Below, piece after piece: positions 5,067-61,643 of a stretch of DNA of 64,000 bases. The stretch lies in NCBI RefSeq assembly GCF_011045215.1, contig NZ_CP049201.1; one strand, written 5' to 3'. The translations under genes and the position numbers were made by a program. Under the pieces are notes generated by a model. That model worked only from the letters and a program-made list of their open reading frames with translations. It was not told the origin of the DNA and searched no databases. The stretch is from Escherichia coli. Its GTDB lineage: Bacteria; Pseudomonadota; Gammaproteobacteria; Enterobacterales; Enterobacteriaceae. The number at the start of each line of letters is the position of its first letter. Position 1 is the stretch's first letter.

Positions 5067-5274
5067 GCGAGCAGCATTCCTGATTTTAAACGTGAACGCC
5101 GCTGGAAGAATTATCAGGTATAGAATGGCGTCGGGTGCTTGAGGCTGTCTGGCGTTAAGCATTCGCGAGGTTCCAGATGGACAAAAGCCCCAGGCGATAT
5201 TTCTATCAACCTGAGGCCAGCGTTCGAACCTAAGCAATTCGAATGTTAGTCTCTTCTTTGCAGGGAGGCAAGAC

Positions 5275-5427
5275 ATGCTGACAAAATATGCCCTTGTGGC
5301 AATCATCGTACTGTGTTGTACAGTACTGGGATTCACGCTGATGGTAGGCGACTCGTTGTGTGAGTTGAGTATCAGAGAACGTGGTATGGAGTTTAAGGCT
5401 GTTCTCGCTTACGAATCGAAGAAGTAG
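5275..5427 (+). CDS. hokX: Hok/Gef-family type I toxin (small membrane peptide)
   Basis: 50-aa ORF not in the track (below size cutoff): [50 protein letters not shown]; GGAGG RBS 6-10 nt upstream; hairpin downstream; symbol assigned from position in the cysH-cas3 intergenic region. Confidence 0.75.
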
Positions 5428-5459: not shown

Positions 5460-5619
5460 ATTGTGATGGTTTGGTCTCCTGCACCCTTTTTTAAATTTAT
5501 ATTTTTTATGTGAATATATTGTCTCTATTTATTATTATGAATTTCAAATGAAAATCATAAATTTATTCACAATATAAATGTTTTATTGGCTGATATATAT
5601 CACAGATAATTTTTAAAAT
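5460..5619 (+). promoter_or_regulatory. AT-rich region upstream of cas3 (likely cas3 promoter and nucleoid-protein silencing region)
   Basis: About 160 bp of very AT-rich sequence immediately 5' of cas3; no specific motifs mapped. Confidence 0.4.
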
Positions 5620-8319
5620 ATGCGTAAATATCCTTTAAGTTTACTGAAGGATAAAAATATTGTGACTTTCTTTGATTTCTGGGGAAAAACCCGACGCGAC
5701 GAGAAAGAAGGGGGTGACGACTATCACCTTCTTTGCTGGCATTCGCTGGATGTGGCCGCGATGGGCTATTTAATGGTTAAAAGAAATTGCTTCGGGCTGG
5801 CTGATTATTTTCGTCAATTAGGGATTTCTGACAAGGAACAGGCGGCTCAATTTTTCGCCTGGTTGTTGTGCTGGCACGATATTGGAAAATTTGCCCGCTC
5901 ATTTCAGCAACTTTACCTGCACCCACAACTCAAGGTTCCGGAAGGCGCAAGAAAGAATTACGAAAAGATCTCTCATTCAACGCTGGGCTACTGGTTGTGG
6001 CATCATTATTTAAGTGAATGCGAAGAATTGCTTCCTGCCTCTTCACTCTCTACTCGCAAACTTAAACGTGTAATAGCGATGTGGATGCCCATGACTACCG
6101 GGCATCATGGTCGGCCCCCTGACCGTATTGATGAACTGGATAATTTTCTGCCTGAAGACAAAGTTGCCGCGCGAGATTTTCTCCTTGAAATCAAGGCACT
6201 GTGTCCGCTCATAGAGATTCCCACATTCTGGGATAATGACGAGGGAGTTGAACTTTTAAAACAACTTTCCTGGTATATCTCTGCAACAGTCGTACTTGCA
6301 GACTGGACGGGTTCGTCAACGCGATTTTTTCCACGCGTCGCACACCCAATGGATATTAAAGATTACTGGCAGAAAACTTTAGTTCAGGCTCAAAACGCCT
6401 TAACCGTCTTTCCTCCAAAAGCAGAAACCGCACCTTTCACCGGAATTAATACGCTGTTTCCTTTTATTGAGCACCCGACACCATTACAGCAAAAGGTGCT
6501 GGATCTGGATATCAGCCAGCCAGGGCCACAGTTATTTATTCTGGAAGACGTGACTGGCGCAGGTAAAACAGAAGCGGCGCTTATCCTGGCGCACAGGTTG
6601 ATGGCTGCGAGGAAAGCACAGGGTTTGTTTTTTGGCCTGCCAACAATGGCAACGGCCAATGCCATGTACGATCGGCTGGTCAAAACCTGGCTTGCTTTCT
6701 TTTCGCCAGAATCCCGCCCCAGCCTGGTGCTGGCACACAGCGCCCGTACATTAATGGAACGCTTTAATGAATCACTCTGGTCCGGTGATTTAGTCGGGTC
6801 AGAAGAACCGGATGAACAAGCGTTCAGTCAAGGATGTGCAGCCTGGTTTGCCGACAGTAACAAGAAGGCTTTACTGGCTGAAATTGGCGTCGGCACGCTG
6901 GATCAGGCGATGATGGCAGTGATGCCGTTTAAACATAATAATCTGCGGCTTCTGGGGTTGAGTAACAAAATCCTGCTGGCTGATGAGATCCACGCCTGTG
7001 ACGCTTACATGTCGTACATTCTTGAAGGGTTGATTGAGCGACAGGTGCGTGGCGGAAACAGCGTCATTTTGCTTTCTGCTACGTTATCTCAACAGCAGCG
7101 CGACAAACTTGTCGCCGCCTTTGCGCGTGGCACAGAGGGCCAGCAAGAAGCTCCGTTCCTGGAAAAGGATGATTACCCCTGGCTGACGCATGTCACGAAA
7201 TCCGATGTGCATTCGCACCGGGTAGCGACGCGCAAAGACGTTGAGCGTAGCGTGAGCGTGGGTTGGCTTCATAGCGAACAAGAATGTATTGCGCGTATCG
7301 AATCAGCGGTAAGTCAGGGGAAATGCATCGCCTGGATCCGGAATTCTGTCGATGACGCTATTAAGGTTTATCGTCAGTTACTTGCCCGCGGCGTCATTCC
7401 TGCTTCCAGCCTTTCACTTTTTCATAGCCGCTTTGCTTTTAGCGATCGCCAGCGAATTGAAACGGAAACGCTGGCACGCTTTGGTAAAAATTGTAGTTTA
7501 AAAAGATCATCTCAAGTCATTGTTTGTACACAAGTAATTGAGCAAAGTGTGGATATTGACCTGGACGAAATGATCTCCGACCTGGCCCCCATTGATTTGC
7601 TGATCCAGCGAGCGGGGCGATTACAACGGCATATTCGCGATATTAATGGTCAGTTAAAGCGTGATGGAAAAGACGAGCGTTCCCCTCCTGAATTGCTGAT
7701 TCTGGCCCCCGTCTGGGACGACTCTCCGGGTGACGAATGGTTTGGCAGTGCGATGCGTAACAGCGCATATGTCTACCCCGATCATGGGCGAATCTGGCTG
7801 ACGCAGCGAGTATTGCGTGAGCAAGGCGCTATTCAGATGCCACACGCAGCCCGGCTTCTTATTGAATCCGTCTACGGTGAGGACGTGGTAATGCCGGAAG
7901 GATTTGCCCGCAGCGAGCAGGAGCAAGTGGGCAAATATTACTGCGATCGCGCAATGGCTAAAAAGTTTATGCTGAACTTCAGGCCCGGCTATGCCGCCAA
8001 TATCAACGATTACCTCCCGGAAAAGCTGTCGACACGTCTGGCTGAAGAGTCTGTTTCCCTGTGGCTGGCTACCTGTATTGACGGTGTGGTGAAGCCTTAT
8101 GCCAGCGGTGCTCACGCATGGGAAATGAGCGTTGCCAGAGTGCGTCGAAGCTGGTGGAAAAAACATCGGGATGAATTTTCTTTACTGGAAGGGGAAGCGT
8201 TCAGGCAGTGGTGTGTTGAACAACGGCAAGATCCGGAGATGGCAAACGTGATTTTAGTCACTGATGACGAAAGTTGCGGGTATTCGGCCAGGGAGGGATT
8301 GATTGGCAAGGTTGATTGA
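5620..8319 (+). CDS. cas3: Type I-E CRISPR-associated helicase/nuclease Cas3 (HD nuclease + SF2 helicase)
   Basis: 899 aa; N-terminal HD motifs (HLLCWHSLDVAA, WHDIGK), Walker A (GAGKTEAA) and DExH-like LADEIHA; start taken from the only upstream ATG, true start may be an internal GTG. Confidence 0.93.
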   Translation: MRKYPLSLLKDKNIVTFFDFWGKTRRDEKEGGDDYHLLCWHSLDVAAMGYLMVKRNCFGLADYFRQLGISDKEQAAQFFAWLLCWHDIGKFARSFQQLYLHPQLKVPEGARKNYEKISHSTLGYWLWHHYLSECEELLPASSLSTRKLKRVIAMWMPMTTGHHGRPPDRIDELDNFLPEDKVAARDFLLEIKALCPLIEIPTFWDNDEGVELLKQLSWYISATVVLADWTGSSTRFFPRVAHPMDIKDYWQKTLVQAQNALTVFPPKAETAPFTGINTLFPFIEHPTPLQQKVLDLDISQPGPQLFILEDVTGAGKTEAALILAHRLMAARKAQGLFFGLPTMATANAMYDRLVKTWLAFFSPESRPSLVLAHSARTLMERFNESLWSGDLVGSEEPDEQAFSQGCAAWFADSNKKALLAEIGVGTLDQAMMAVMPFKHNNLRLLGLSNKILLADEIHACDAYMSYILEGLIERQVRGGNSVILLSATLSQQQRDKLVAAFARGTEGQQEAPFLEKDDYPWLTHVTKSDVHSHRVATRKDVERSVSVGWLHSEQECIARIESAVSQGKCIAWIRNSVDDAIKVYRQLLARGVIPASSLSLFHSRFAFSDRQRIETETLARFGKNCSLKRSSQVIVCTQVIEQSVDIDLDEMISDLAPIDLLIQRAGRLQRHIRDINGQLKRDGKDERSPPELLILAPVWDDSPGDEWFGSAMRNSAYVYPDHGRIWLTQRVLREQGAIQMPHAARLLIESVYGEDVVMPEGFARSEQEQVGKYYCDRAMAKKFMLNFRPGYAANINDYLPEKLSTRLAEESVSLWLATCIDGVVKPYASGAHAWEMSVARVRRSWWKKHRDEFSLLEGEAFRQWCVEQRQDPEMANVILVTDDESCGYSAREGLIGKVD

Positions 8320-8408
8320 GATGCCTGCGACAGAGACTCTCTGAATAGTTGATACACCGAAAAGGATGGATAACCGACCTGGATGGTCTTTTTTACGAGA
8401 GGATGCGT

Positions 8409-9971
8409 ATGAACTTGTTTTCACTTCTGACAACCCCGTGGTTGCCCGTTCGTTTTAAAGACGGAACGACAGGCAAACTGGCGCCAGTCGATCTGGCTGA
8501 TGAAAATGTTGTCGATATCGCCGCGCCGCGAGCAGATTTACAAGGTGCGGCATGGCAGTTTTTGCTGGGGCTACTACAAACCAGCTTTGCGCCAAAAGAT
8601 CATCGTCGTTGGGATGATATCTGGGAAGACGGACTGGAAGCTGAAAAGCTAAGGGAAGCATTGCTGTCATTAGAACATGCTTTCCAGTTTGGCCCAGATT
8701 CCCCTTCATTTATGCAGGATTTTGAGGCGCTCACGGGAGATAAAGTTCAGGTCGCTTCGCTACTGCCTGATGTTCCCGGCGCTCAAACGACGAAGTTTAA
8801 TAAAGACCATTTTATCAAGCGTGGTGTAACGGAATATCTGTGCCCCCATTGTTTAGCATTGGCCTTGTTCTCTTTACAGTTGAATGCACCAGCGGGTGGC
8901 AAAGGCTATCGCACCGGTTTGCGCGGCGGTGGGCCGATGACCACTCTGATTGAATTACAGGAATATCAGGGCAATCAACAAACACCCTTATGGCGCAAAC
9001 TGTGGCTCAACGTGATGCCGCAGGATGAAGCCGACTTACCGCTACCCCAAAAATTTGACGATCTGGTTTTCCCCTGGCTTGGCCCGACGCGTACCAGCGA
9101 ACTGGCCGGTGCGGTGGTAACCGATGATCAGGTTAATAAACTCCAGGCGTACTGGGGAATGCCACGGCGTATTCGTATTGATTTTAATACCACCACAGTC
9201 GGCAACTGCGATATTTGCGGTGAGCAGAGCGACGCGCTTCTGAGCCTGATGACGACCAAAAATTACGGCGCTAACTATGCCATGTGGCAGCATCCCTTAA
9301 CGCCTTACCGTGTACCACTTAAAGAGGGCGGCGAGTTTTACTCAGTTAAACCACAACCGGGCGGTTTAATCTGGCGCGACTGGTTAGGCCTTATCGAAAC
9401 GGGGAAATCAGAAAACAATACGGAACTTCCCGCGCTGGTGGTGAAACTCTTTAATGCCAGCAGTCTGAAACAGGCAAAAGTGGGCCTGTGGGGATTTGGT
9501 TATGATTTTGACAACATGAAAGCGCGCTGTTGGTACGAGCACCATTTCCCGCTTCTGCTCAATAAAAAAGAAGGCCAGATACCGAAACTGCGGCTGGCTG
9601 CGCAAACGGCTTCACGGATTCTGAGTCTGTTACGGAGTGCATTGAAAGAAGCGTGGTTCTCCGATCCAAAAGGTGCACGGGGTGATTTCAGTTTTGTGGA
9701 TATCGACTTCTGGAACAAAACTCAGCATCGCTTCCTGAGGTTAGTGCGCCAAATTGAAGAAGGTCAGGATGCGGATGAATTACTCGGCAAATGGCAAAAG
9801 GAAATTTGGTTATTCGCACGTCAGGATTTTGACGAGCGTGTATTCACCAATCCTTATGAGCCCGTTGATTTGGAACGCGTCATGACCGCGCGCAAGAAAT
9901 ATTTTACAACATCGGCGGAGAAGCAAAGTGCTAAAGCCGCCAGGGAGAAAAAGCAGGAGGCTGCTGAATGA
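8409..9971 (+). CDS. casA: Cascade large subunit Cse1/Cas8e
   Basis: ORF 8349..9971 trimmed to MNLFSLLTTPWLPVR (520 aa), matching the Cse1 N-terminus pattern MNL...W.PVR; conserved GLRGGGPMTTL loop region; GAGAGG RBS. Confidence 0.9.
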   Translation: MNLFSLLTTPWLPVRFKDGTTGKLAPVDLADENVVDIAAPRADLQGAAWQFLLGLLQTSFAPKDHRRWDDIWEDGLEAEKLREALLSLEHAFQFGPDSPSFMQDFEALTGDKVQVASLLPDVPGAQTTKFNKDHFIKRGVTEYLCPHCLALALFSLQLNAPAGGKGYRTGLRGGGPMTTLIELQEYQGNQQTPLWRKLWLNVMPQDEADLPLPQKFDDLVFPWLGPTRTSELAGAVVTDDQVNKLQAYWGMPRRIRIDFNTTTVGNCDICGEQSDALLSLMTTKNYGANYAMWQHPLTPYRVPLKEGGEFYSVKPQPGGLIWRDWLGLIETGKSENNTELPALVVKLFNASSLKQAKVGLWGFGYDFDNMKARCWYEHHFPLLLNKKEGQIPKLRLAAQTASRILSLLRSALKEAWFSDPKGARGDFSFVDIDFWNKTQHRFLRLVRQIEEGQDADELLGKWQKEIWLFARQDFDERVFTNPYEPVDLERVMTARKKYFTTSAEKQSAKAAREKKQEAAE

Positions 9972-10504
9972 GTATTGTAAAAGAGGAGCACAAAGCCACG
10001 CTGCGCAAATGGCATGAGGAATTGCAGGAGAAACGCGGCGAACGTGCCAGTCTGCGGCGTAGTACGACGGTTAATGATGTTTGTCTGACGGATGGATTTC
10101 GCCTGTTTCTGAAGAACAGACAAATAAAGTGGCAGGATGAACCTGAATGGCGTATTACCGCACTGGCGCTGATAGCCGCACTTAGCGCTAATGTTAAAGC
10201 CATTGATGAACGGCTGCCTTTTGCTGCGCAGCTGGCGGCGGTAATGTCAAAGGGGCGTTTTACTCGCCTGTCGGCAGTAAAAACACCGGATGAATTACTG
10301 CGCCAGTTACGCCGCGCAGTCAGATTATTAAACGGTTCCGTTAATCTTGACTCTCTGGCAGAGGGTGTCTTCCGCTGGTGCCAGGAGAGCGACGATCTGC
10401 TCAATCATCACCGCCGTCATCAGCGGCCAACCGAATTTATCCGTATCCGCTGGGCGCTGGAATATTACCAGGCTGGCGACGCCGATAACGAACAAAATCA
10501 ATAA
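9968..10504 (+). CDS. casB: Cascade small subunit Cse2/Cas11
   Basis: 178 aa basic helical protein; ATG overlaps the cse1 stop (ATGA); position between cse1 and cas7. Confidence 0.85.
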   Translation: MSIVKEEHKATLRKWHEELQEKRGERASLRRSTTVNDVCLTDGFRLFLKNRQIKWQDEPEWRITALALIAALSANVKAIDERLPFAAQLAAVMSKGRFTRLSAVKTPDELLRQLRRAVRLLNGSVNLDSLAEGVFRWCQESDDLLNHHRRHQRPTEFIRIRWALEYYQAGDADNEQNQ

Positions 10505-10515
10505 AGGACTATCTC

Positions 10516-11571
10516 ATGACGACATTTATTCAGCTTCATTTGTTAACCGCTTACCCTGCAGCCAACCTTAACCGTGATGACACCGGAGCGCCGAAAACCG
10601 TGGTCCTGGGTGGAGCAACGCGACTGCGCGTTTCCTCGCAAAGTCTGAAACGTGCGTGGCGCACTTCTGCACTTTTTGAACAGGCACTGGCGGGCCATAT
10701 TGGTATTCGCAGTGGGCGTATTGCGCGTGAGGCGGCAACGATCCTGATTGAGAAAGGCATCGAAGAGAAAAAAGCCATCGAATGGGCGGCAAAAATTGCG
10801 GATTATCTTGGGAAAGCTAAAAACGACAAAAAACCAAAAGATCCGCTCACTAACGCCGAAACTGAACAATTAGTCCATATCAGCCCGGCAGAATTTGACG
10901 CCGTAAAAGCGCTGGCCCATCAACTGGCCGAAGAAAAGCGCGCGCCAAAAGAGGAAGATCTCGCTTTGTTACGTAAAGATCGCATGGCGGTAGATATCGC
11001 TATGTTTGGTCGTATGCTGGCGAATAAACCCGAATTTAATGTTGAAGCCGCCTGCCAGGTCGCGCATGCATTTGGTGTCAGTGAAACGATTGTCGAAGAT
11101 GATTTTTTCACCGCCGTTGATGATTTGCGCCAGGCTTCTGAAGATGCCGGTGCCGGGCATCTTGGTGAAACCGGATTCGGTTCTGCGCTGTTCTACACCT
11201 ATATCTGCATCGATAAAGATCTGCTGGTCGAAAACCTCGGCGGTGACGAAGCGTTAGCTAATCAGACCTTGCGCGCCTTTACGGAAGCCGCACTTAAAGT
11301 CTCCCCAACCGGCAAACAGAACAGCTTTGCCAGCCGTGCCTACGCCTCCTGGGCGCTGGCAGAAAAAGGGACTGAACAACCACGCTCTCTGGCGGCGGCT
11401 TTCTATGAACCCATTAATGGCACCCGGCAGTTAGATGTGGCGGTGCAGCGTATTACAACGCTTCGCGAAAATATGAATACGGTCTATGAACAGAAGACCG
11501 AATGCGCAAGCTTTGACGTGATGAACAAACAGGGAAGCATGAAGGACGTGCTGGACTTTATCTGCGCGTAA
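10516..11571 (+). CDS. casC: Cascade backbone subunit Cas7e
   Basis: 351 aa; Cas7e-like N-terminal region (LTAYPAANLNRDD...SSQSLKRAWR); third gene of the effector operon. Confidence 0.9.
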   Translation: MTTFIQLHLLTAYPAANLNRDDTGAPKTVVLGGATRLRVSSQSLKRAWRTSALFEQALAGHIGIRSGRIAREAATILIEKGIEEKKAIEWAAKIADYLGKAKNDKKPKDPLTNAETEQLVHISPAEFDAVKALAHQLAEEKRAPKEEDLALLRKDRMAVDIAMFGRMLANKPEFNVEAACQVAHAFGVSETIVEDDFFTAVDDLRQASEDAGAGHLGETGFGSALFYTYICIDKDLLVENLGGDEALANQTLRAFTEAALKVSPTGKQNSFASRAYASWALAEKGTEQPRSLAAAFYEPINGTRQLDVAVQRITTLRENMNTVYEQKTECASFDVMNKQGSMKDVLDFICA

Positions 11572-11581
11572 GGGGCGGCTA

Positions 11582-12328
11582 ATGAGCCAATATTTGATTT
11601 TTCAGCTTCATGGGCCAATGGCATCCTGGGGCGTCGATGCCCCCGGCGAAGTGCGTCATACCCATGAACTGCCTTCGCGCTCAGCATTGCTGGGGCTGCT
11701 GGCTGCCGGGGTAGGGATTCGGCGTGATGATACCGAACGATTAAACGCGTTTAACCGCCACTATTCACTGGTGGTTTGCGCCAGCCGTAACCCGCGCTGG
11801 GCACGGGATTATCACACGATCCAGATGCCAAAAGAGGTGCGTAAAGCGCGTTATTTCAGCCGTCGCGAAGAGTTGAGCGACCCTGATCTTCTGAGCGCGA
11901 TTATCTCCCGGCGCGACTACTACACCGACGCCTGGTGGATGGTGGCGGTGGCAACAACAGCCGATGCGCCTTACAGCCTCGAACAGTTGCAGGGCGGTTT
12001 ACGCCATCCAGTTTTTCCTCTTTATCTGGGGCGAAAAAGTCATCCGCTGGCATTACCACTTGCGCCGTTACTGCTCGAAGGCAACGCGTCTGATGTTTTA
12101 CGTAACGCATATCACCAGTATCAGGAGCATTTCCACGACCTGAAAATCGCACTCCCGAAACTTCAGGATGAATGCTGGTGGGAAGGGGAGCACGACGGCC
12201 TGGTCGCGAGCAAAATATTGCGCCGCCGGGATGTTCCTTTAAATCGTCAGCAATGGCTGTTTGGGGAACGCACCGTCAATCAGGGGCCGTGGCTCAGCAA
12301 GGAGGAACCATGTACCTCTCAAGAATAA
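11582..12328 (+). CDS. casD: Cascade subunit Cas5e
   Basis: 248 aa; N-terminus QLHGPMASWG...LPSRSALLGLLAAGVGIRRDD resembles Cas5e. Confidence 0.9.
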   Translation: MSQYLIFQLHGPMASWGVDAPGEVRHTHELPSRSALLGLLAAGVGIRRDDTERLNAFNRHYSLVVCASRNPRWARDYHTIQMPKEVRKARYFSRREELSDPDLLSAIISRRDYYTDAWWMVAVATTADAPYSLEQLQGGLRHPVFPLYLGRKSHPLALPLAPLLLEGNASDVLRNAYHQYQEHFHDLKIALPKLQDECWWEGEHDGLVASKILRRRDVPLNRQQWLFGERTVNQGPWLSKEEPCTSQE

Positions 12329-12956
12329 CCTTACATACCGGCCAGCTTTCGCCTGCGCAGTTGCTGCATCTGGTGGAGCGCGGGGAATATGTGATGCATC
12401 AGTGGCTGTGGGATCTCTTCCCTGGCGGCAAAGAAAGGCAATTTCTTTATCGTCGGGAAGAACTCCAGGGCGCGTTTCGCTTTTTTGTACTGTCGCAGGA
12501 ACGCCCGGCGGAAAGTGAAACGTTCACCATCGAATGCCGGTCATTTGTGCCCGAGCTGCGTACCGGACAACAACTTTGTTTCAACCTGCGGGCGAATCCA
12601 ACAATCTGTAAAGCGGGCAAGCGCCACGATCTGCTGATGGAGGCGAAACGGCAGGTGAGGGGGCAGGCGGAAGGAAGTGATGTCTGGTTGCATCAACAAC
12701 AGGCGGCGCTGGACTGGCTGGCAGCGCAGGGGGAGAGAAGCGGTTTTACACTGCTGGATACCTCGGTTGATGCCTACCGACAACAGCAACTGCGGCGGGA
12801 AAACTCCCGGCAACTGATCCAGTTCAGTAGCGTGGATTATACGGGGATGCTTACGGTCACCGATCCCGGGTTATTTCTGCAACGTCTCAGTCAGGGGTAT
12901 GGCAAAAGCCGCGCGTTCGGCTGTGGTCTGATGCTGATCAAACCCGGAGCAGAGGC

Positions 12957-12960
<4 letters not shown>
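12310..12960 (+). CDS. casE: Cas6e pre-crRNA endoribonuclease
   Basis: ORF 12172..12960 trimmed to MYLSRITLH (216 aa) preceded by an AAGGAGGA RBS; C-terminal glycine-rich GxGxxxxxGxG loop; overlaps the cas5 3' end. Confidence 0.9.
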
Positions 12961-14170
<1,210 letters not shown>

Positions 14171-14266
14171 GTTATGTGTTCTTTAAAAATAAGGAAATGT
14201 TTGAATTTAGTTGGTAGATTGTTGATGTGGAATAAATTTGTTTAAAAACAGATATGTATGCTTAGT
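14171..14266 (+). promoter_or_regulatory. CRISPR leader (AT-rich; array promoter and integration-proximal region)
   Basis: 96-bp AT-rich sequence between the cas2 stop and the first repeat. Confidence 0.8.
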
Positions 14267-14478
14267 GTGTTCCCCGCGCCAGCGGGGATAAACCGGTGCA
14301 TAAAAAATGATACCCCAGCGTTTCGTTGTGTTCCCCGCGCCAGCGGGGATAAACCGATTGAAATAGATCTCCCCGACATTAACGAACAGTGTTCCCCGCG
14401 CCAGCGGGGATAAACCGGGCGCACTGGATGCGATGATGGATATCACTTAGAATTCCCCGCCCCTGCGGTAGAACTCCC
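14267..14478 (+). CRISPR. Type I-E CRISPR array: 4 repeats (29 bp) and 3 spacers (32 bp)
   Basis: Repeat GTGTTCCCCGCGCCAGCGGGGATAAACCG at 14267-14295, 14328-14356 and 14389-14417; degenerate terminal repeat GAATTCCCCGCCCCTGCGGTAGAACTCCC at 14450-14478; spacers at 14296-14327, 14357-14388 and 14418-14449. Confidence 0.97.
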
Positions 14479-14498
14479 AGCTCCCATTTTCAAACCCA

Positions 14499-38385: not shown

Positions 38386-38403
38386 AAGCAATAATTGTGC
38401 CAG
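38386..38403 (-). promoter_or_regulatory. Candidate sigma54 promoter for the hyp operon
   Basis: Minus-strand TGGCAC-N6-TGCT (GG-N10-GC spacing) about 30 nt upstream of the hypA start. Confidence 0.5.
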
Positions 38404-38515
38404 TGTTGATTATCCCTGCAGTGAATAATGTCGATGATGTCGAAATGACACGTCGACACGGCGACGAAATTCACCAAAATCTTAAAAATCGCTTTAATAA
38501 CAATAAATTAAAAGT

Positions 38516-38531
38516 TGGCACAAAAAATGCT
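38516..38531 (+). promoter_or_regulatory. Candidate sigma54 promoter for the hyc operon
   Basis: TGGCAC-N6-TGC with GG-N10-GC spacing, about 40 nt upstream of the hycA start. Confidence 0.5.
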
Positions 38532-38567: not shown

Positions 38568-39029
38568 ATGACTATTTGGGAAATAAGCGAGAAAGCCGAT
38601 TACATCGCACAGCGGCATCGTCGCCTACAGGACCAGTGGCACATCTACTGCAATTCGCTGGTTCAGGGGATCACGTTATCGAAAGCGCGCCTGCATCACG
38701 CCATGAGCTGCGCGCCGGACAAAGAACTCTGTTTCGTCCTTTTTGAACATTTTCGTATTTACGTCACCCTGGCGGATGGCTTTAACAGCCACACCATCGA
38801 GTATTACGTCGAAACAAAAGATGGCGAAGACAAACAGCGGATTGCGCAGGCGCAACTGAGCATTGACGGCATGATTGATGGCAAGGTCAACATCCGCGAT
38901 CGCGAACAGGTTCTGGAACACTATCTCGAAAAAATCGCTGGCGTTTACGACAGCTTATACACCGCCATTGAAAACAATGTGCCGGTGAATTTAAGCCAAC
39001 TGGTAAAGGGACAAAGCCCGGCAGCATGA
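38568..39029 (+). CDS. hycA: Formate hydrogenlyase regulatory protein HycA
   Basis: 153 aa; first gene of the hyc operon, divergent from hypA. Confidence 0.93.
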   Translation: MTIWEISEKADYIAQRHRRLQDQWHIYCNSLVQGITLSKARLHHAMSCAPDKELCFVLFEHFRIYVTLADGFNSHTIEYYVETKDGEDKQRIAQAQLSIDGMIDGKVNIRDREQVLEHYLEKIAGVYDSLYTAIENNVPVNLSQLVKGQSPAA

Positions 39030-53958: not shown

Positions 53959-55092
53959 CTACACCGTCAACGTTTTCAACAATCCAAATGCCTCTTTCAT
54001 CCGATCCTCACTGACCACAAAGGCGCGAAGCTGGTCAGCATCGTCAACGCCGCGCGCCACCATTCCCTGGCGTTCGGTATTAATCTGCCAGCGTAAATCC
54101 TGACGCTGGGTTTCGCCTGCCAGATGCAGCGGTAATTCCGGCGTTTTGATTTTCACCAGCATCGCCGGTAGTTTCAGCGGCGTGTTATTGCCGAGAAGAT
54201 TTTTTGCCAGCACCATCCCGCTAAGTTGAATCGGCTGCAGGAACGGCAATACCTGACTGTTAATTTCCGCGCAATCGCCCAGCGCGTAAATATCGGCATT
54301 ACTGGTTTGCAGATAACTATCGACGCAAACGCCGCGATTAATCGTCAGCCCGGCGCGTCGTGCCAGGGCGGTTTCCGGGCGCAGTCCGGTGGCGGCAATT
54401 ACCGCATCCACTTCGATACTACGCTGGCGGTCCAGCGTTGCCAGAATGCCAGAATCCGTTTTTTCCAGCCCCTGCAACTGAGATTTCAACAGCAGATGAA
54501 CGCCCATCTCCGTCAACCGATGCTGCAAGCGGCTGCTTACTTCCGGTGGCATTAACGACGCCAGAATACTGGTAGCGTTGTCGATTAGCGTAACCATTTT
54601 GCCTGCACGACAAAAATCCATCGCCAGTTCGCTACCAATCAAACCACCGCCAACAATCAACACGCGTCGGGCATCCCGCAGTTGCGTTTCACAGGCGCGA
54701 TACTCTTGCTGACTATTTAACGTCAGCATTAACTCACGCCCAGGCACAGGCGGGACAAAGGCGCTGGCACCAGTTGCCAGCACTAACTTGTCGTATTGCC
54801 ACTGATTATTCTGGCTTTTCACCACATGGGCTTCGGCATCGATATCCGTCACCCAGGTGTGCGGAAACAGGCGCAGATTAAACTGCTCGGCAAATTCACC
54901 CGCCGTCTGGCGGGTAAGGTCGTCGGCACGTTGCCCCTTACTGATAACATGGCTGAGGTCAGGTTTGTTGTACTCATCTATGCTGTCGGCGGCAATCAGG
55001 GTTAATGGAATAGTGGCGTCCTGTTTGCGAATATTTTTCACCAGTTGGCGGGCGGCGAAGCCCGAACCGATGATCACAATGCCGTTACTCAT
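53959..55092 (-). CDS. norW: Nitric oxide reductase FlRd-NAD(+) reductase
   Basis: 377 aa; FAD/NAD Rossmann motifs ([15 protein letters not shown]). Confidence 0.95.
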
Positions 55093-56528
55093 TTTGCCTC
55101 CGATGCCAGTTCGTCAAAGACGTCTTTGCCGAGGGAGCATTCCGGGCAGAGGAAGTTATCCGGGACTTCACTCCACGGCGTTCCTGGCGCAACGTCCTGC
55201 ATTGGCTCGCCTTTTGCCGGATCGTAAATCCACTGGCAGACGCTGCACTGCATCCGTGGGCCGAGGTCAGCCGTCGTGGTGGCAGAGGTTTCTTCTTTAA
55301 CTACCGTATTCACCGTGCTCTGCGGCAGCGGCGCGAGCGCCCACTGACGGGCGATTTCGCGACCGTGTTCACGGCATAACTCCAGAGCGTCCTGGTCTGG
55401 TCGCCATTTCGCTTTCAGGCTAAGCGACATTTCGAAACCCGCATCCTGCAGGCGCGTGGAAAGACGATCCACCGCACCGCCGCTCCAGCCGTGAGAGCCG
55501 AAAGCACTGGCGCGTTTGTTACGGAAGCGTAATCCGGTCATCTCCTCCACCAGCCCGGCGATTTTCGGCATCATCACGTTATTCATCGTCGAAGTGCCGA
55601 CCAGCACGCCTTTTGAGCGGAAGACATTGGTCAGGATTTCGTTTTTATCGCTTCGGGCGACGTTGAAAATTTTCACCGCCACGCGTGGGTCGGTTTCCGC
55701 AATCCCCTGGGCGATAGCGTCAGCCATCATGCGGGTGTTATTCGACATGGTGTCGTAGAAAATGGTGATTCTGTCTTCCTGATAATCAGCCGCCCATTTC
55801 AGGTACAGCTCGACAATTTGCGTCGGGTTATCGCGCCAGACCACGCCGTGAGAGGTCGCTATCATATCGACTGGTAAGTTAAAGCCCAGGATCTCGGTAA
55901 TTTTCGGCGTTACCAGGCGGCTGAACGGCGTAAGGATATTGGCGTAGTAACGCTGGCACTGCTCAAAAAGCTCCGTCTGATCCACTTCATCGTTGAACAG
56001 ATGCTCGTCGCAGTAGTGCTGACCGAAAGCATCGTTACTGAACAGCACCGCGTCGCCTGTCAGGTAAGTCATCATGCTGTCCGGCCAGTGCAGCATTGGT
56101 GTTTCGACAAAAATGAGCTGTTTGCCGTTGCCGATATCCAGCGTGTCGCCAGTTTTCACCACATTAAAATTCCACTCCGGATGATGGTGATGACCATTTA
56201 TCGAGTCGATAGCGTTGGCAGTACAGTAGATCGGCGTATCGGGAATTTGTGCCATCAGTTCGGTCAGCGCCCCGGCGTGGTCCTCTTCTGCATGGTTAAT
56301 CACGATGTAATCGATATCCGCCAGATCGATTTCATTACGCAGGTTCTGCACAAATTCGCGGCTGAATTTATGGTCGACGGTGTCGATCAGCACGTTTTTT
56401 TCTTCGCGGATGAGGTAGCTGTTGTAGCTGCTGCCGCGCAGCGTTTTATATTCCGTGCCGTGAAAATCACGCACTTCCCAGTCACGTTGACCCACCCAAT
56501 GAATGTTATTTTTCACCACAATAGACAT
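55089..56528 (-). CDS. norV: Anaerobic nitric oxide reductase flavorubredoxin
   Basis: 479 aa; metallo-beta-lactamase, flavodoxin and C-terminal rubredoxin (CxxC...CPxC) domains. Confidence 0.96.
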
Positions 56529-56574
56529 AGCAACCTCAATTTATTCAGCGTGTTCTAAAAAGATGTCTTGCTAA

Positions 56575-56592
56575 TTGCAGATTGCGTGCCAG
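56575..56592 (-). promoter_or_regulatory. Candidate sigma54 promoter of norVW
   Basis: Minus-strand TGGCAC-N6-TGCA (GG-N10-GC) about 45 nt upstream of the norV start. Confidence 0.6.
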
Positions 56593-56646
56593 TTTTTTAT
56601 CTGATTGTTTTTACTCTATAAATAAAATTATGCTCATTAATGAGTA

Positions 56647-56702
56647 GTCAAAATGACTATCAATAAAATGGTCGATATGACAATATGTATAGTCAAATTG
56701 AC
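56647..56702. promoter_or_regulatory. Three NorR-type enhancer sites (GT-N7-AC) in the norR-norV intergenic region
   Basis: gtcaaaatgac (56647-56657), gtcgatatgac (56671-56681), gtcaaattgac (56692-56702). Confidence 0.65.
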
Positions 56703-56714
56703 AGTGAGGCAAAG

Positions 56715-58229
56715 ATGAGTTTTTCCGTTGATGTGCTGGCGAATATCGCCATCGAATTGCAGCGTGGGATTGGTCATCAGGATCGTTTTCAGCGCCTGAT
56801 CACCACGCTGCGTCAGGTGCTGGAGTGCGATGCGTCTGCGTTGCTACGTTACGACTCGCGGCAGTTTATTCCGCTTGCCATCGACGGGCTGGCGAAGGAT
56901 GTACTCGGTAGACGCTTTGCGCTGGAAGGTCATCCACGGCTGGAAGCGATTGCCCGCGCGGGTGATGTGGTGCGCTTTCCCGCAGACAGCGAATTGCCCG
57001 ATCCCTATGATGGTTTGATTCCCGGACAGGAGAGTCTGAAGGTCCACGCCTGCGTTGGTCTGCCATTGTTTGCCGGGCAAAACCTGATCGGCGCATTGAC
57101 GCTCGACGGGATGCAGCCCGATCAGTTCGATGTTTTCAGCGACGAAGAGTTACGCCTGATTGCCGCGCTGGCGGCGGGAGCGTTAAGCAATGCGTTGCTG
57201 ATTGAGCAACTGGAAAGCCAGAATATGCTGCCGGGCGATGCCGCTCCATTTGAAGCGGTGAAACAGACGCAGATGATTGGCTTGTCCCCTGGCATGACGC
57301 AACTGAAAAAAGAGATTGAGATTGTGGCGGCGTCCGATCTCAACGTCCTGATCAGCGGTGAGACGGGAACCGGTAAGGAGCTGGTGGCGAAAGCGATTCA
57401 TGAAGCCTCGCCACGGGCGGTGAATCCGCTGGTCTATCTCAACTGTGCCGCACTGCCGGAAAGTGTGGCGGAAAGTGAGTTGTTCGGGCATGTGAAAGGA
57501 GCGTTTACTGGCGCTATTAGTAACCGCAGCGGGAAGTTTGAAATGGCGGATAACGGCACGCTGTTTCTCGATGAGATCGGCGAGTTGTCGTTGGCATTGC
57601 AGGCCAAGCTGCTGAGAGTGTTGCAGTATGGCGATATTCAGCGCGTTGGCGATGACCGCAGTTTGCGGGTCGATGTGCGCGTGCTGGCGGCGACTAACCG
57701 CGACTTACGCGAAGAGGTGCTGGCAGGGCGATTCCGCGCCGATTTGTTTCATCGCCTGAGTGTGTTTCCACTTTCGGTGCCGCCGCTGCGTGAGCGGGGC
57801 GATGATGTCATTCTGCTGGCGGGGTATTTCTGCGAGCAGTGTCGTTTGCGGCAGGGGCTCTCCCGCGTGGTATTAAGTGCCGGGGCGCGAAATTTACTGC
57901 AACACTACAGTTTTCCGGGAAACGTGCGCGAACTGGAACATGCTATTCATCGGGCGGTAGTGCTGGCGAGAGCCACCCGCAGCGGCGATGAAGTGATTCT
58001 TGAGGCGCAACATTTTGCTTTTCCTGAGGTGACGTTGCCGCCGCCAGAAGTGGCGGCGGTGCCCGTTGTTAAGCAAAACCTGCGTGAAGCGACAGAAGCG
58101 TTTCAGCGTGAAACTATTCGTCAGGCACTGGCACAAAATCATCACAACTGGGCTGCCTGCGCGCGGATGCTGGAAACCGACGTCGCCAACCTGCATCGGC
58201 TGGCGAAACGTCTGGGATTGAAGGATTAA
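56715..58229 (+). CDS. norR: Anaerobic nitric oxide reductase transcriptional regulator NorR (sigma54-dependent)
   Basis: ORF trimmed to [16 protein letters not shown] (504 aa); GAF domain, AAA+ domain ([14 protein letters not shown]), C-terminal HTH. Confidence 0.96.
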
Positions 58230-59191
58230 ATAATCCCGGCCTGATAGAAATCCTGCAGGTTTATTGCGCCGGTGAGTTTGCCGTTTTCATCCACCACCGG
58301 TGCGGCAGTGATTTTGCGCTTCATCAGGATCTCTTTGGCGTCGATGGCGCGACTTTGCGATTGCAACGTGGTGCCGCCGACCGTCATCGCTTCATTGACT
58401 GGCGTGGTGAGTGCGCCGCCGCCAACCAGCCAGCGACGTAAATCGCCGTCGGTAAAGACGCCTTGTACCTGTTGTTGAGCGTCACATACCGCCACCAGCC
58501 CCAGACCGGTGCGGCTGAGTTCCAGCATAGCATCCATCACGCTGGCGGTTAACGCCACCTGTGGGATGGCATCGTCACGGCGCATCAGATGATGCACTTT
58601 ATTCAGCAAGCGAGCGCCCAGTGCTCCAGCAGGGTGGGAGCGGGCAAAATCTTCTTCATTAAATCCGCGCGCCTGCATGACCGCCATCGCCAGCGCGTCA
58701 CCCATCATCAGGGTATTGACGGTGCTGGAGGTCGGCGCAAGGTGCATCGGGCAGGCTTCGCGTTCTACGGAGATATCCAGCACCGCTTTCGCCGCCAGGC
58801 CCAGCGGTGACGTCGGTTTGCCGGTCATCGCCAGCAGCGCGATAGATTTGTCTTCCAGACGCGGAATAATCAGATCCAGTTCCTTCGCCCCACCGGAGTA
58901 AGAGATAAACAGCATCACATCGCGGCTTTCGAGCATCCCCAGATCGCCATGCAGCGCTTCTGCCGGATGGACAAAAAAAGCCGGTGTGCCGGTACTGGCA
59001 AGCGTTGCGGCGATTTTCTTACCAATGTGGCCCGATTTGCCAATTCCCGAAACCACCACTTTGCCTTCGCAGTGCAGGATGATATTGGCGGCGCGAACAA
59101 AATCATCGCCCAGACGTTCCGGTAAACGGCTTGCTTCCTGCAATTCCAGCATTAACGTCTGACGTCCCGCGTTCAGTAGTGCTTCACTCAT
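58226..59191 (-). CDS. gutQ: Arabinose-5-phosphate isomerase GutQ (SIS + CBS domains)
   Basis: 321 aa; SIS motif VSGIGKSG. Confidence 0.95.
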
Positions 59192-59957
59192 TGCTCTCTC
59201 CGGTTATGATCACATCGATCCCTTTCTCTTCCAGCGCCTGACGAAACGCCGGATCGATATCTGCGTCGGTAATCAGCTTATCGACGCTTTCAAGACTGCA
59301 AACTACGTTGGGGCTTTTACGGCCAAACTTTGATGAGTCCGCCATCAAAATCACTTCGCGCGCGGCATTGCACATTGCCTTACTGACGGTATAGACCTCG
59401 TTGAAGGTGGTTACGCCCGCATTGAGATCGATGCCGTCAGTACCCATGAATAATTTGTCGAAGGTGAAATGCTCGAAGGCATTCTCTGCCAGCTGCCCGT
59501 GAAATGAGGCCGATTTTTTACGAAACGTTCCGCCTGGCATCAGGATAGTTTGTTCGTTATCCAGTTCAGATAGCGCATTGACGATATGCAGACTGTTGGT
59601 CATCACCGTGATGTTATTAAAGCGCGAGAGCAGAGGCACCATCTGCAAAACGGTGCTGCCAGCATCAAGAATGATCGAATCGCCATCATGAATAAAACCA
59701 ACGGCAGCTTCTGCTATCAGCTCTTTCTTGTGGGTGTTGATGAGTGTTTTATGATCGATAGGCGGATCGGATTCCTCTTTATTCAACACCACTCCGCCAT
59801 AAGTACGAATGACGGTTCCGGCATGTTCCAGAATGACCAGATCTTTGCGAATGGTTGTGCCTGTGGTGTCAAAGTATTGCGCCAATTCTTCAACCGAGCA
59901 TTTACCCTGCTTTTGCAGATACTCCAGAATGGCGGCCTGACGCTGACGAGGTTTCAT
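59184..59957 (-). CDS. srlR: DeoR-family glucitol operon repressor
   Basis: 257 aa; N-terminal HTH, DeoR C-terminal domain. Confidence 0.95.
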
Positions 59958-60023
59958 GGGCGTGATTACCTGATTTAGGTTTCAAAATGATAACTTCGCA
60001 AGCAAGTAACATTCACAACGAAA

Positions 60024-60383
60024 TTATCCACGTTTCAGTTTAAGCGCCAATGATAGAGCATTCTGTGATAGTGGATCATGGGGAAAGATCACATCGGGCT
60101 GTAAATCACCCGCATGCATACCGGTAATTGCGGGAATTTTTTGCGGTCGGGCGAAGACGGTCAGTCCTTTCATAAACAAGGTGTCGGCGATGCGCTGCTG
60201 ATCGTCCAGGGCGATGGCGACCACGACCCGCGGTTTAAAGCGCCCGCTGGAACGGCCCACGCCAACCCGCCCTTGCTGGCATAGTGTGTCGAAGGCACGG
60301 TTAAAACGAGAAATTTGCCAGCCGCCTAAGGCCAGTTGCGCACACCAGGCGATAACGGCGACAGTGATGAGTGCGGATACCAT
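60024..60383 (-). CDS. srlM: Glucitol operon activator
   Basis: 119 aa; position between srlD and srlR. Confidence 0.9.
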   Translation of the reverse strand: MVSALITVAVIAWCAQLALGGWQISRFNRAFDTLCQQGRVGVGRSSGRFKPRVVVAIALDDQQRIADTLFMKGLTVFARPQKIPAITGMHAGDLQPDVIFPHDPLSQNALSLALKLKRG

Positions 60384-60488
60384 AACTTTTCCTTAATGTA
60401 GTGGCGGAAGTCCTGTATGCCTGATGAGCGTAGCGCATCAGGCATTCTATTAGTCTCACGGAGATCCTTAACGGATCTCCGCTGTTGA

Positions 60489-61643
<1,155 letters not shown>

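Follow-up and report, generated by a model that had tools for sequence, protein, structure and literature searches.

NorR-controlled promoters have been described at norAB of Ralstonia eutropha, at hmpA and nnrS of Vibrio cholerae and at hmp of Pseudomonas, and they share tandem GT-N7-AC repeats upstream of a sigma-54 promoter, usually beside norR (PMC1274295, PMC2831303, PMC3345576). Their targets are a flavohaemoglobin or a haem-copper NO reductase, whereas the target in the DNA studied here is a flavorubredoxin. For E. coli, Tucker et al. (2010; PMC2831303) subjected the three enhancer sites to footprinting and mutagenesis. NorR methylation-protection footprints cover sites 1-3, and a change of GT-N7-AC to GG-N7-CC at any single site abolished norV activation in vivo and led to the loss of NorR binding at that site, of enhancer-stimulated ATPase activity and of open-complex formation; also, a 266-bp fragment bearing all three sites stabilises ring-shaped NorR oligomers, and IHF binds the DNA that separates the NorR sites from the norV start site (PMC2831303). 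In genomic SELEX, the norV-norR spacer was essentially the sole major NorR binding peak (PMC8249747). With regard to the promoter, ChIP-seq of sigma-54 by Bonocora et al. assigned the motif C-TGGCACGCAATCTGC-A to norV with a distance value of 37 (PMC4591121), and norV is sigma-54 dependent in Salmonella (PMC3844500). For NorR itself, residues R75, D96, D99, C113 and D131 are the ligands of the NO-sensing non-haem iron (PMC4601167). A more distant parallel, drawn by the authors of PMC2831303 themselves, is TyrR with its three TyrR boxes, where a hexamer has been proposed to form from three dimers on three adjacent dyads. The likeness is one of principle only, as the TyrR hexamer represses and sigma-70 polymerase is concerned.

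The window analyzed here is a stretch of 64,000 nucleotides (64 kb) of E. coli DNA, and its positions 56529-56714 make up the whole 186-bp spacer between the divergent genes norV (minus strand) and norR (plus strand). We consider this spacer to be the E. coli norR-norVW divergent control region, enhancer-dependent via three NorR sites, with a probability of about 97%. On the minus strand, the start codon of norV reaches 56528, and the ATG of norR is found at 56715. The features of the locus are the following:

53959-55092, minus strand: norW, NADH:flavorubredoxin reductase, 377 aa (open reading frame; NCBIfam equivalog NF003437, 676.7 bits)
55089-56528, minus strand: norV, anaerobic NO reductase flavorubredoxin, 479 aa, full length (NCBIfam equivalog NF003954; RefSeq annotation)
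56529-56565, minus strand: predicted 5' leader of norV, about 37 nt, in which GAGG at about 56535-56538 is the ribosome-binding site
56592-56576, minus strand: sigma-54 promoter of norVW, CTGGCACGCAATCTGCA, with GG at 56590/56589 (-25/-24) and GC at 56578/56577 (-13/-12)
56610-56598, minus strand: putative IHF-like site AAACAATCAGATA, with two mismatches to the consensus WATCAANNNNTTR, centred near -39 in the interval from promoter to site 1
56647-56657: NorR enhancer site 1, GTCAAAATGAC (gtcaaaatgac), centred near -87 relative to the norV start
56671-56681: NorR enhancer site 2, GTCGATATGAC (gtcgatatgac), centred near -111 relative to the norV start
56692-56702: NorR enhancer site 3, GTCAAATTGAC (gtcaaattgac), centred near -132 relative to the norV start; the site lies 13 bp ahead of the norR ATG
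56715-58229, plus strand: norR, NO-sensing sigma-54 enhancer-binding protein, 504 aa (NF003451)

A previous reading of this DNA, made from the sequence only, had named the flanking genes norR, norV and norW, and NCBIfam equivalog scores of 823, 1047 and 677 bits, well above the respective cut-offs of 476, 711 and 392, bear out these identities. The NorV match covers profile positions 1-479 of 479, norW is the second gene of the regulated operon and carries the annotation norW in the closest E. coli genome, and the equivalog matches of NorV and NorW together define norVW as an operon for an NO-detoxifying enzyme. Pfam analysis of NorR revealed the domains GAF, Sigma54_activat and AAA_lid_14, and within the protein a Walker A motif, GETGTGKE, lies at residue 215 and the GAFTGA loop at residue 262. 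All five of the five iron ligands are present, and the first 163 amino acids are identical to those of K-12 NorR. The C-terminal Fis-type helix-turn-helix gave a weak, sub-threshold match to Pfam HTH_8 (17.6 bits compared to a cut-off of 22). An Rfam scan of the window gave no RNA family match in or near the norV-norR spacer, the sole match in the window being sok (see below).

When a 481-bp query centred on the spacer was compared with complete E. coli genomes, it was present in 5425 of 5426 of them and the neighboring genes were always annotated norV and norR. In K-12 MG1655, the same genes are separated by a spacer of 186 bp with three identical sites and an identical promoter string, and the two spacers differ by three substitutions, at 56634 (T here, C in K-12), 56665 (A here, C in K-12) and 56687 (G here, C in K-12), all of which lie outside the NorR sites, the promoter and any recognised element. 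Judged by this comparison, the published NorR binding, the need for three sites, the DNA-dependent oligomerisation and the sigma-54 occupancy concern essentially the same sequence as the one in the window. The norR-norVW control region is already known in detail and itself offers nothing new; the copy studied here is a positive control, in that a textbook enhancer-dependent promoter was recognised from raw sequence, and no new biology is implied. The switch is relevant medically, for NO detoxification during infection, and technically, for NO biosensors.

The sequence-only reading had described three evenly spaced inverted repeats, gtcaaaatgac, gtcgatatgac and gtcaaattgac, as enhancer sites. 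All three are found at the positions given above. From start to start, sites 1 and 2 are 24 bp apart and sites 2 and 3 are 21 bp apart, so that the description as evenly spaced is true approximately and not strictly. Site 1 sits within the published site-1 21-mer, which is matched exactly at 56641-56661, and the cores of sites 2 and 3 are identical to the site-2 and site-3 sequences in the mutagenic primers of the same study (PMC2831303). The proposed comparison with characterised NorR sites therefore agrees in all three cases, and enhancer-dependent activation through these sites, which had also been claimed, concerns the very sites that were footprinted and mutated.

The lack of conservation of the three sites in orthologous spacers had been named beforehand as the outcome that would speak against them as enhancer sites. 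One genome per GTDB species was scanned for NorR relatives and 80 loci were kept, all of them from Enterobacterales and with 78-99% protein identity. Upstream DNA is available for 78 of these loci, and in each of them norV and norR are transcribed divergently across a spacer of 179-192 bp. These 78 orthologous spacers, the window and K-12 form an alignment set of 80 distinct sequences. The GTC/GAC cores (18 columns) are 99.9% conserved compared to 71.6% for the remaining spacer columns, and 60 flanking coding columns of the same alignment are 89.5% conserved. Among 100000 sets of 18 columns drawn at random and 129 placements made by sliding the three-site geometry, none reached the conservation value of the cores. 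GTC-N5-GAC is kept at all three sites in 78 of the 80 sequences: the GTC/GAC core of site 1 is invariant or nearly so, GTC...GAC of site 2 is invariant and site 3 is conserved in 79 sequences. The exact 24/21-bp spacing occurs in 77/80 sequences and the distance from the start of site 1 to the -24 element amounts to 59-62 bp in 72/80. The sites are thus nearly invariant in the 78 orthologous spacers and the claim withstood the comparison. This result is in agreement with the same architecture having been reported earlier for Salmonella, Erwinia and Vibrio (PMC1274295), and the 78-species table extends such comparative work in a modest, quantitative way with regard to spacing, -24 distance and the split between GC and GA at the promoter described below.

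The minus-strand element TGGCAC-N6-TGCA, which had been proposed to drive norVW, is present as TGGCACGCAATCTGCA at 56591-56576 and has the canonical form TGGCACG-N4-CTGCA with GG-N10-GC spacing. The longer string CTGGCACGCAATCTGCA corresponds letter for letter to the sigma-54 ChIP-seq motif OS25 of norV (PMC4591121). In the alignment of 80 sequences, GGCAC of the -24 element together with TG of the -12 element is 99.3% conserved, and the region of the norV leader shows moderate to high conservation. If the C of the GC doublet is taken as position -12, as is the rule, the transcription start of norV would lie at about position 56565, and the resulting leader of 37 nt agrees with the value of 37 listed beside the norV motif in PMC4591121. 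Within the 64-kb window, TGGCAC-N6-TGCA is matched twice compared to 0.39 matches expected. The second match, TGGCACATCTACTGCA (38637-38652, plus strand), is located inside the hycA coding sequence and this string is absent from the main text of the sigma-54 ChIP-seq paper (PMC4591121); it is probably a chance occurrence, with the caveat that intragenic sigma-54 sites do exist in E. coli.

Four confirmed sigma-54 promoters are present in the window, those of norV, hydN, hycA and hypA, and the latter three are located as follows:

38403-38387, minus strand: hypA sigma-54 promoter, identical to the published ChIP-seq motif (PMC4591121)
38515-38531, plus strand: hycA sigma-54 promoter, identical to the published ChIP-seq motif (PMC4591121)
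50844-50860: hydN sigma-54 promoter CTGGCATGATTTGTGAA, an exact match to the E. coli ChIP-seq table (PMC4591121)

The FhlA-dependent hyc/hyp region (about 38387-38531) resembles the norR-norVW region in that a GAF-domain sigma-54 activator, upstream sites and divergent sigma-54 promoters are likewise involved. It differs in its activator, in its signal, formate, and in the presence of two sigma-54 promoters in the hypA-hycA spacer (38387-38531) which face outwards, whereas norR-norVW has one sigma-54 promoter, which in this contrast faces the regulator's own gene. The hyc/hyp region also holds an 11-mer of the palindrome class GTCRWWWTGAC to which the three NorR sites belong, but just one. This 11-mer, GTCGAAATGAC (38439-38449), adjoins GTCGAC at 38452-38457, and the two together presumably form part of the FhlA upstream activating sequence.

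Inverted repeats might arise in A/T-rich intergenic DNA by chance and have no function, and two observations could be taken in that sense. The window as a whole shows no enrichment of the looser pattern GTC-N5-GAC (15 matches compared to 11.3 expected), and a fourth GTC-N5-GAC palindrome, GTCACGTTGAC, occurs inside norV at 56481-56491 (codons 13-16). We rejected this fourth copy as a NorR site, and it is probably accidental, since the palindrome is not conserved and its last half-site varies freely among other species at a synonymous position of a glycine codon (GGC, GAC, GTC or GCC on this strand). However, the stricter class GTCRWWWTGAC gave seven strand matches in the 64-kb window compared to 0.52 expected, none of 100 dinucleotide-preserving shuffles gave seven, and five of the seven matches are accounted for by NorR sites 1-3, clustered within 56 bp. 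As the looser pattern shows no enrichment, the signal comes from the clustering and from the A/T-rich centres of the sites. The near-complete conservation of the cores over that of the neighboring spacer and the fixed 24/21-bp spacing in the 80 sequences also argue against chance, as does the published mutagenesis, which makes each site essential (PMC2831303). Functionless palindromes are refuted by the conservation comparison and we give this explanation virtually no credence.

Equally negligible in our judgment is the view that the palindromes are bound not by NorR but by another regulator, such as NsrR or FhlA, a related GAF-domain activator. The window also encodes FhlA, as collinearity with a RefSeq annotation shows, and the similar 11-mer GTCGAAATGAC lies between the FhlA-dependent sigma-54 promoters of hypA and hycA, but the published methylation-protection footprints on these exact sites were obtained with NorR (PMC2831303), the norV-norR spacer is the sole major peak in NorR genomic SELEX (PMC8249747), the sites always accompany a divergent norR in the 78 loci, and the NsrR consensus gATGyAT-N5-ATrCATc is a different motif (PMC1274295). 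Alternatively, the sites could serve mainly as operators that repress norR, with norVW being activated independently of them. Their position 13-68 bp upstream of the norR ATG, the naming of K-12 NorR as a dual regulator and the repression by V. cholerae NorR of its own promoter, which occurs independently of NO and for which derepression was shown (PMC3345576), would fit such a role. However, mutation of any single site abolishes induction of norV-lacZ, enhancer-dependent ATPase activity and open complexes (PMC2831303), and the distance between site 1 and the -24 element is held at 59-62 bp in 72 of the 80 sequences, which argues against operators alone because repression of norR would not need a fixed distance to the norV promoter. 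We therefore regard this explanation as very unlikely, if somewhat less remote than the two preceding ones. Activating and repressive roles are compatible with each other, and just the exclusively repressive version is rejected.

According to the reading we prefer, activation of norVW by NorR from three enhancer sites, three NorR dimers would occupy the three GT-N7-AC palindromes, whose centres lie near -87, -111 and -132 relative to the norV start, and would assemble on the DNA into a hexameric AAA+ ring. The -24/-12 element (56592-56576, minus strand) would hold sigma-54 RNA polymerase as a closed complex, and IHF would bend the A/T-rich DNA between sites and promoter such that the ring could touch the polymerase. 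Binding of NO to the non-haem iron of the NorR GAF domain would release the repression of the ATPase, and hydrolysis of ATP would then open the promoter and allow transcription of norVW. For this DNA, dimer binding, ring assembly, relief of ATPase repression by NO and sigma-54 remodelling are covered by the literature, and bending by IHF has been proposed (PMC2831303, PMC4601167). In a consensus scan of the interval between promoter and site 1 of the window, the best match to the IHF consensus had two mismatches, and its placement at 56598-56610 is a prediction from the sequence. In 69 of the 80 sequences, an IHF consensus match with zero or one mismatch, for example AATCAATAAATTA, is found between promoter and site 1, in keeping with the published IHF binding in this part of the E. 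coli region (PMC2831303).

The three repeats had also been said to overlap the 5' region of norR, in line with autoregulation. This holds for the promoter or leader of norR and not for its coding sequence, as the sites end short of the ATG. Hutchings et al. reportedly described negative autoregulation of norR in E. coli in 2002. Bound NorR would be expected to lower norR transcription as well, and to do so independently of NO, because the three sites take up the 70 bp that directly precede the norR start codon and because they are occupied with or without NO; this is how we infer autorepression to work. Autoregulation by NorR is very probable, and it is the part of the picture with the least direct support, its basis being the position of the sites, the name "dual regulator" given to NorR in the RefSeq annotation of K-12, the description of norR as well as norVW as NorR-regulated (PMC8249747) and the analogy with V. 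cholerae. A simple consensus scan of 56400-56850 gave no plus-strand sigma-70-like promoter for norR; a single minus-strand match was obtained, which is at chance level (1 compared to 1.0 expected), and hexamers checked by hand gave no convincing candidate for a norR promoter.

Across the 80 sequences, the -12 doublet of the norV promoter varies. GC (CTGCA or CTGCT) is found in 35, GA (TTGAT or similar) in 42 and GT in 3 sequences. The GC group includes Escherichia, Citrobacter, Salmonella and Kluyvera, and GA dominates in Enterobacter, Klebsiella, Raoultella, Kosakonia and Lelliottia. Sequences with GA retain the -24 element, the three NorR sites and the asymmetric 24/21-bp spacing. The hydN promoter of E. 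coli likewise has GA at its -12 position. If the C at -12 matters for how tightly the sigma-54 polymerase is held in the closed state, the norVW switch of the GA clade could differ in basal or induced output, and the 24/21-bp spacing could be a readout of the geometry of the DNA-wrapped NorR hexamer; both ideas are speculative and we consider them rather unlikely.

The norW-to-srlD stretch (54215-60726) is 98.6% identical to the best-matching E. coli genome, that of a baboon isolate, 96.5% identical to Escherichia sp. E1V33 and 94.4% identical to the GTDB representative of E. coli. At the norV-norR junction, an identity of at least 99% was found in only 74 of 5426 matching records. Judged from these identities, the window seems to come from an uncommon lineage of E. 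coli, or else the segment seems to have recombined locally.

A type I-E CRISPR-Cas system is encoded at 5494-14487, on a segment of about 9 kb that the closest complete E. coli genome (NZ_CP048605.1) lacks. This segment and its immediate upstream neighborhood contain the following features:

5133-5290: sok antitoxin RNA (Rfam RF01794, 111.7 bits compared to a gathering score of 59)
5620-8319: Cas3
8349-9971: Cse1/CasA
12957-13880: Cas1e
14266-14478: short CRISPR array beside iap, with three good 30-nt repeats and one degenerate repeat at a spacing of 61 bp

Cas3 and CasA score below the cut-offs of the K-12-type equivalog models and pass with the generic I-E models, which indicates that they are divergent alleles. 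The sok RNA is part of a chromosomal hok/sok locus located just downstream of cysH and immediately before cas3.
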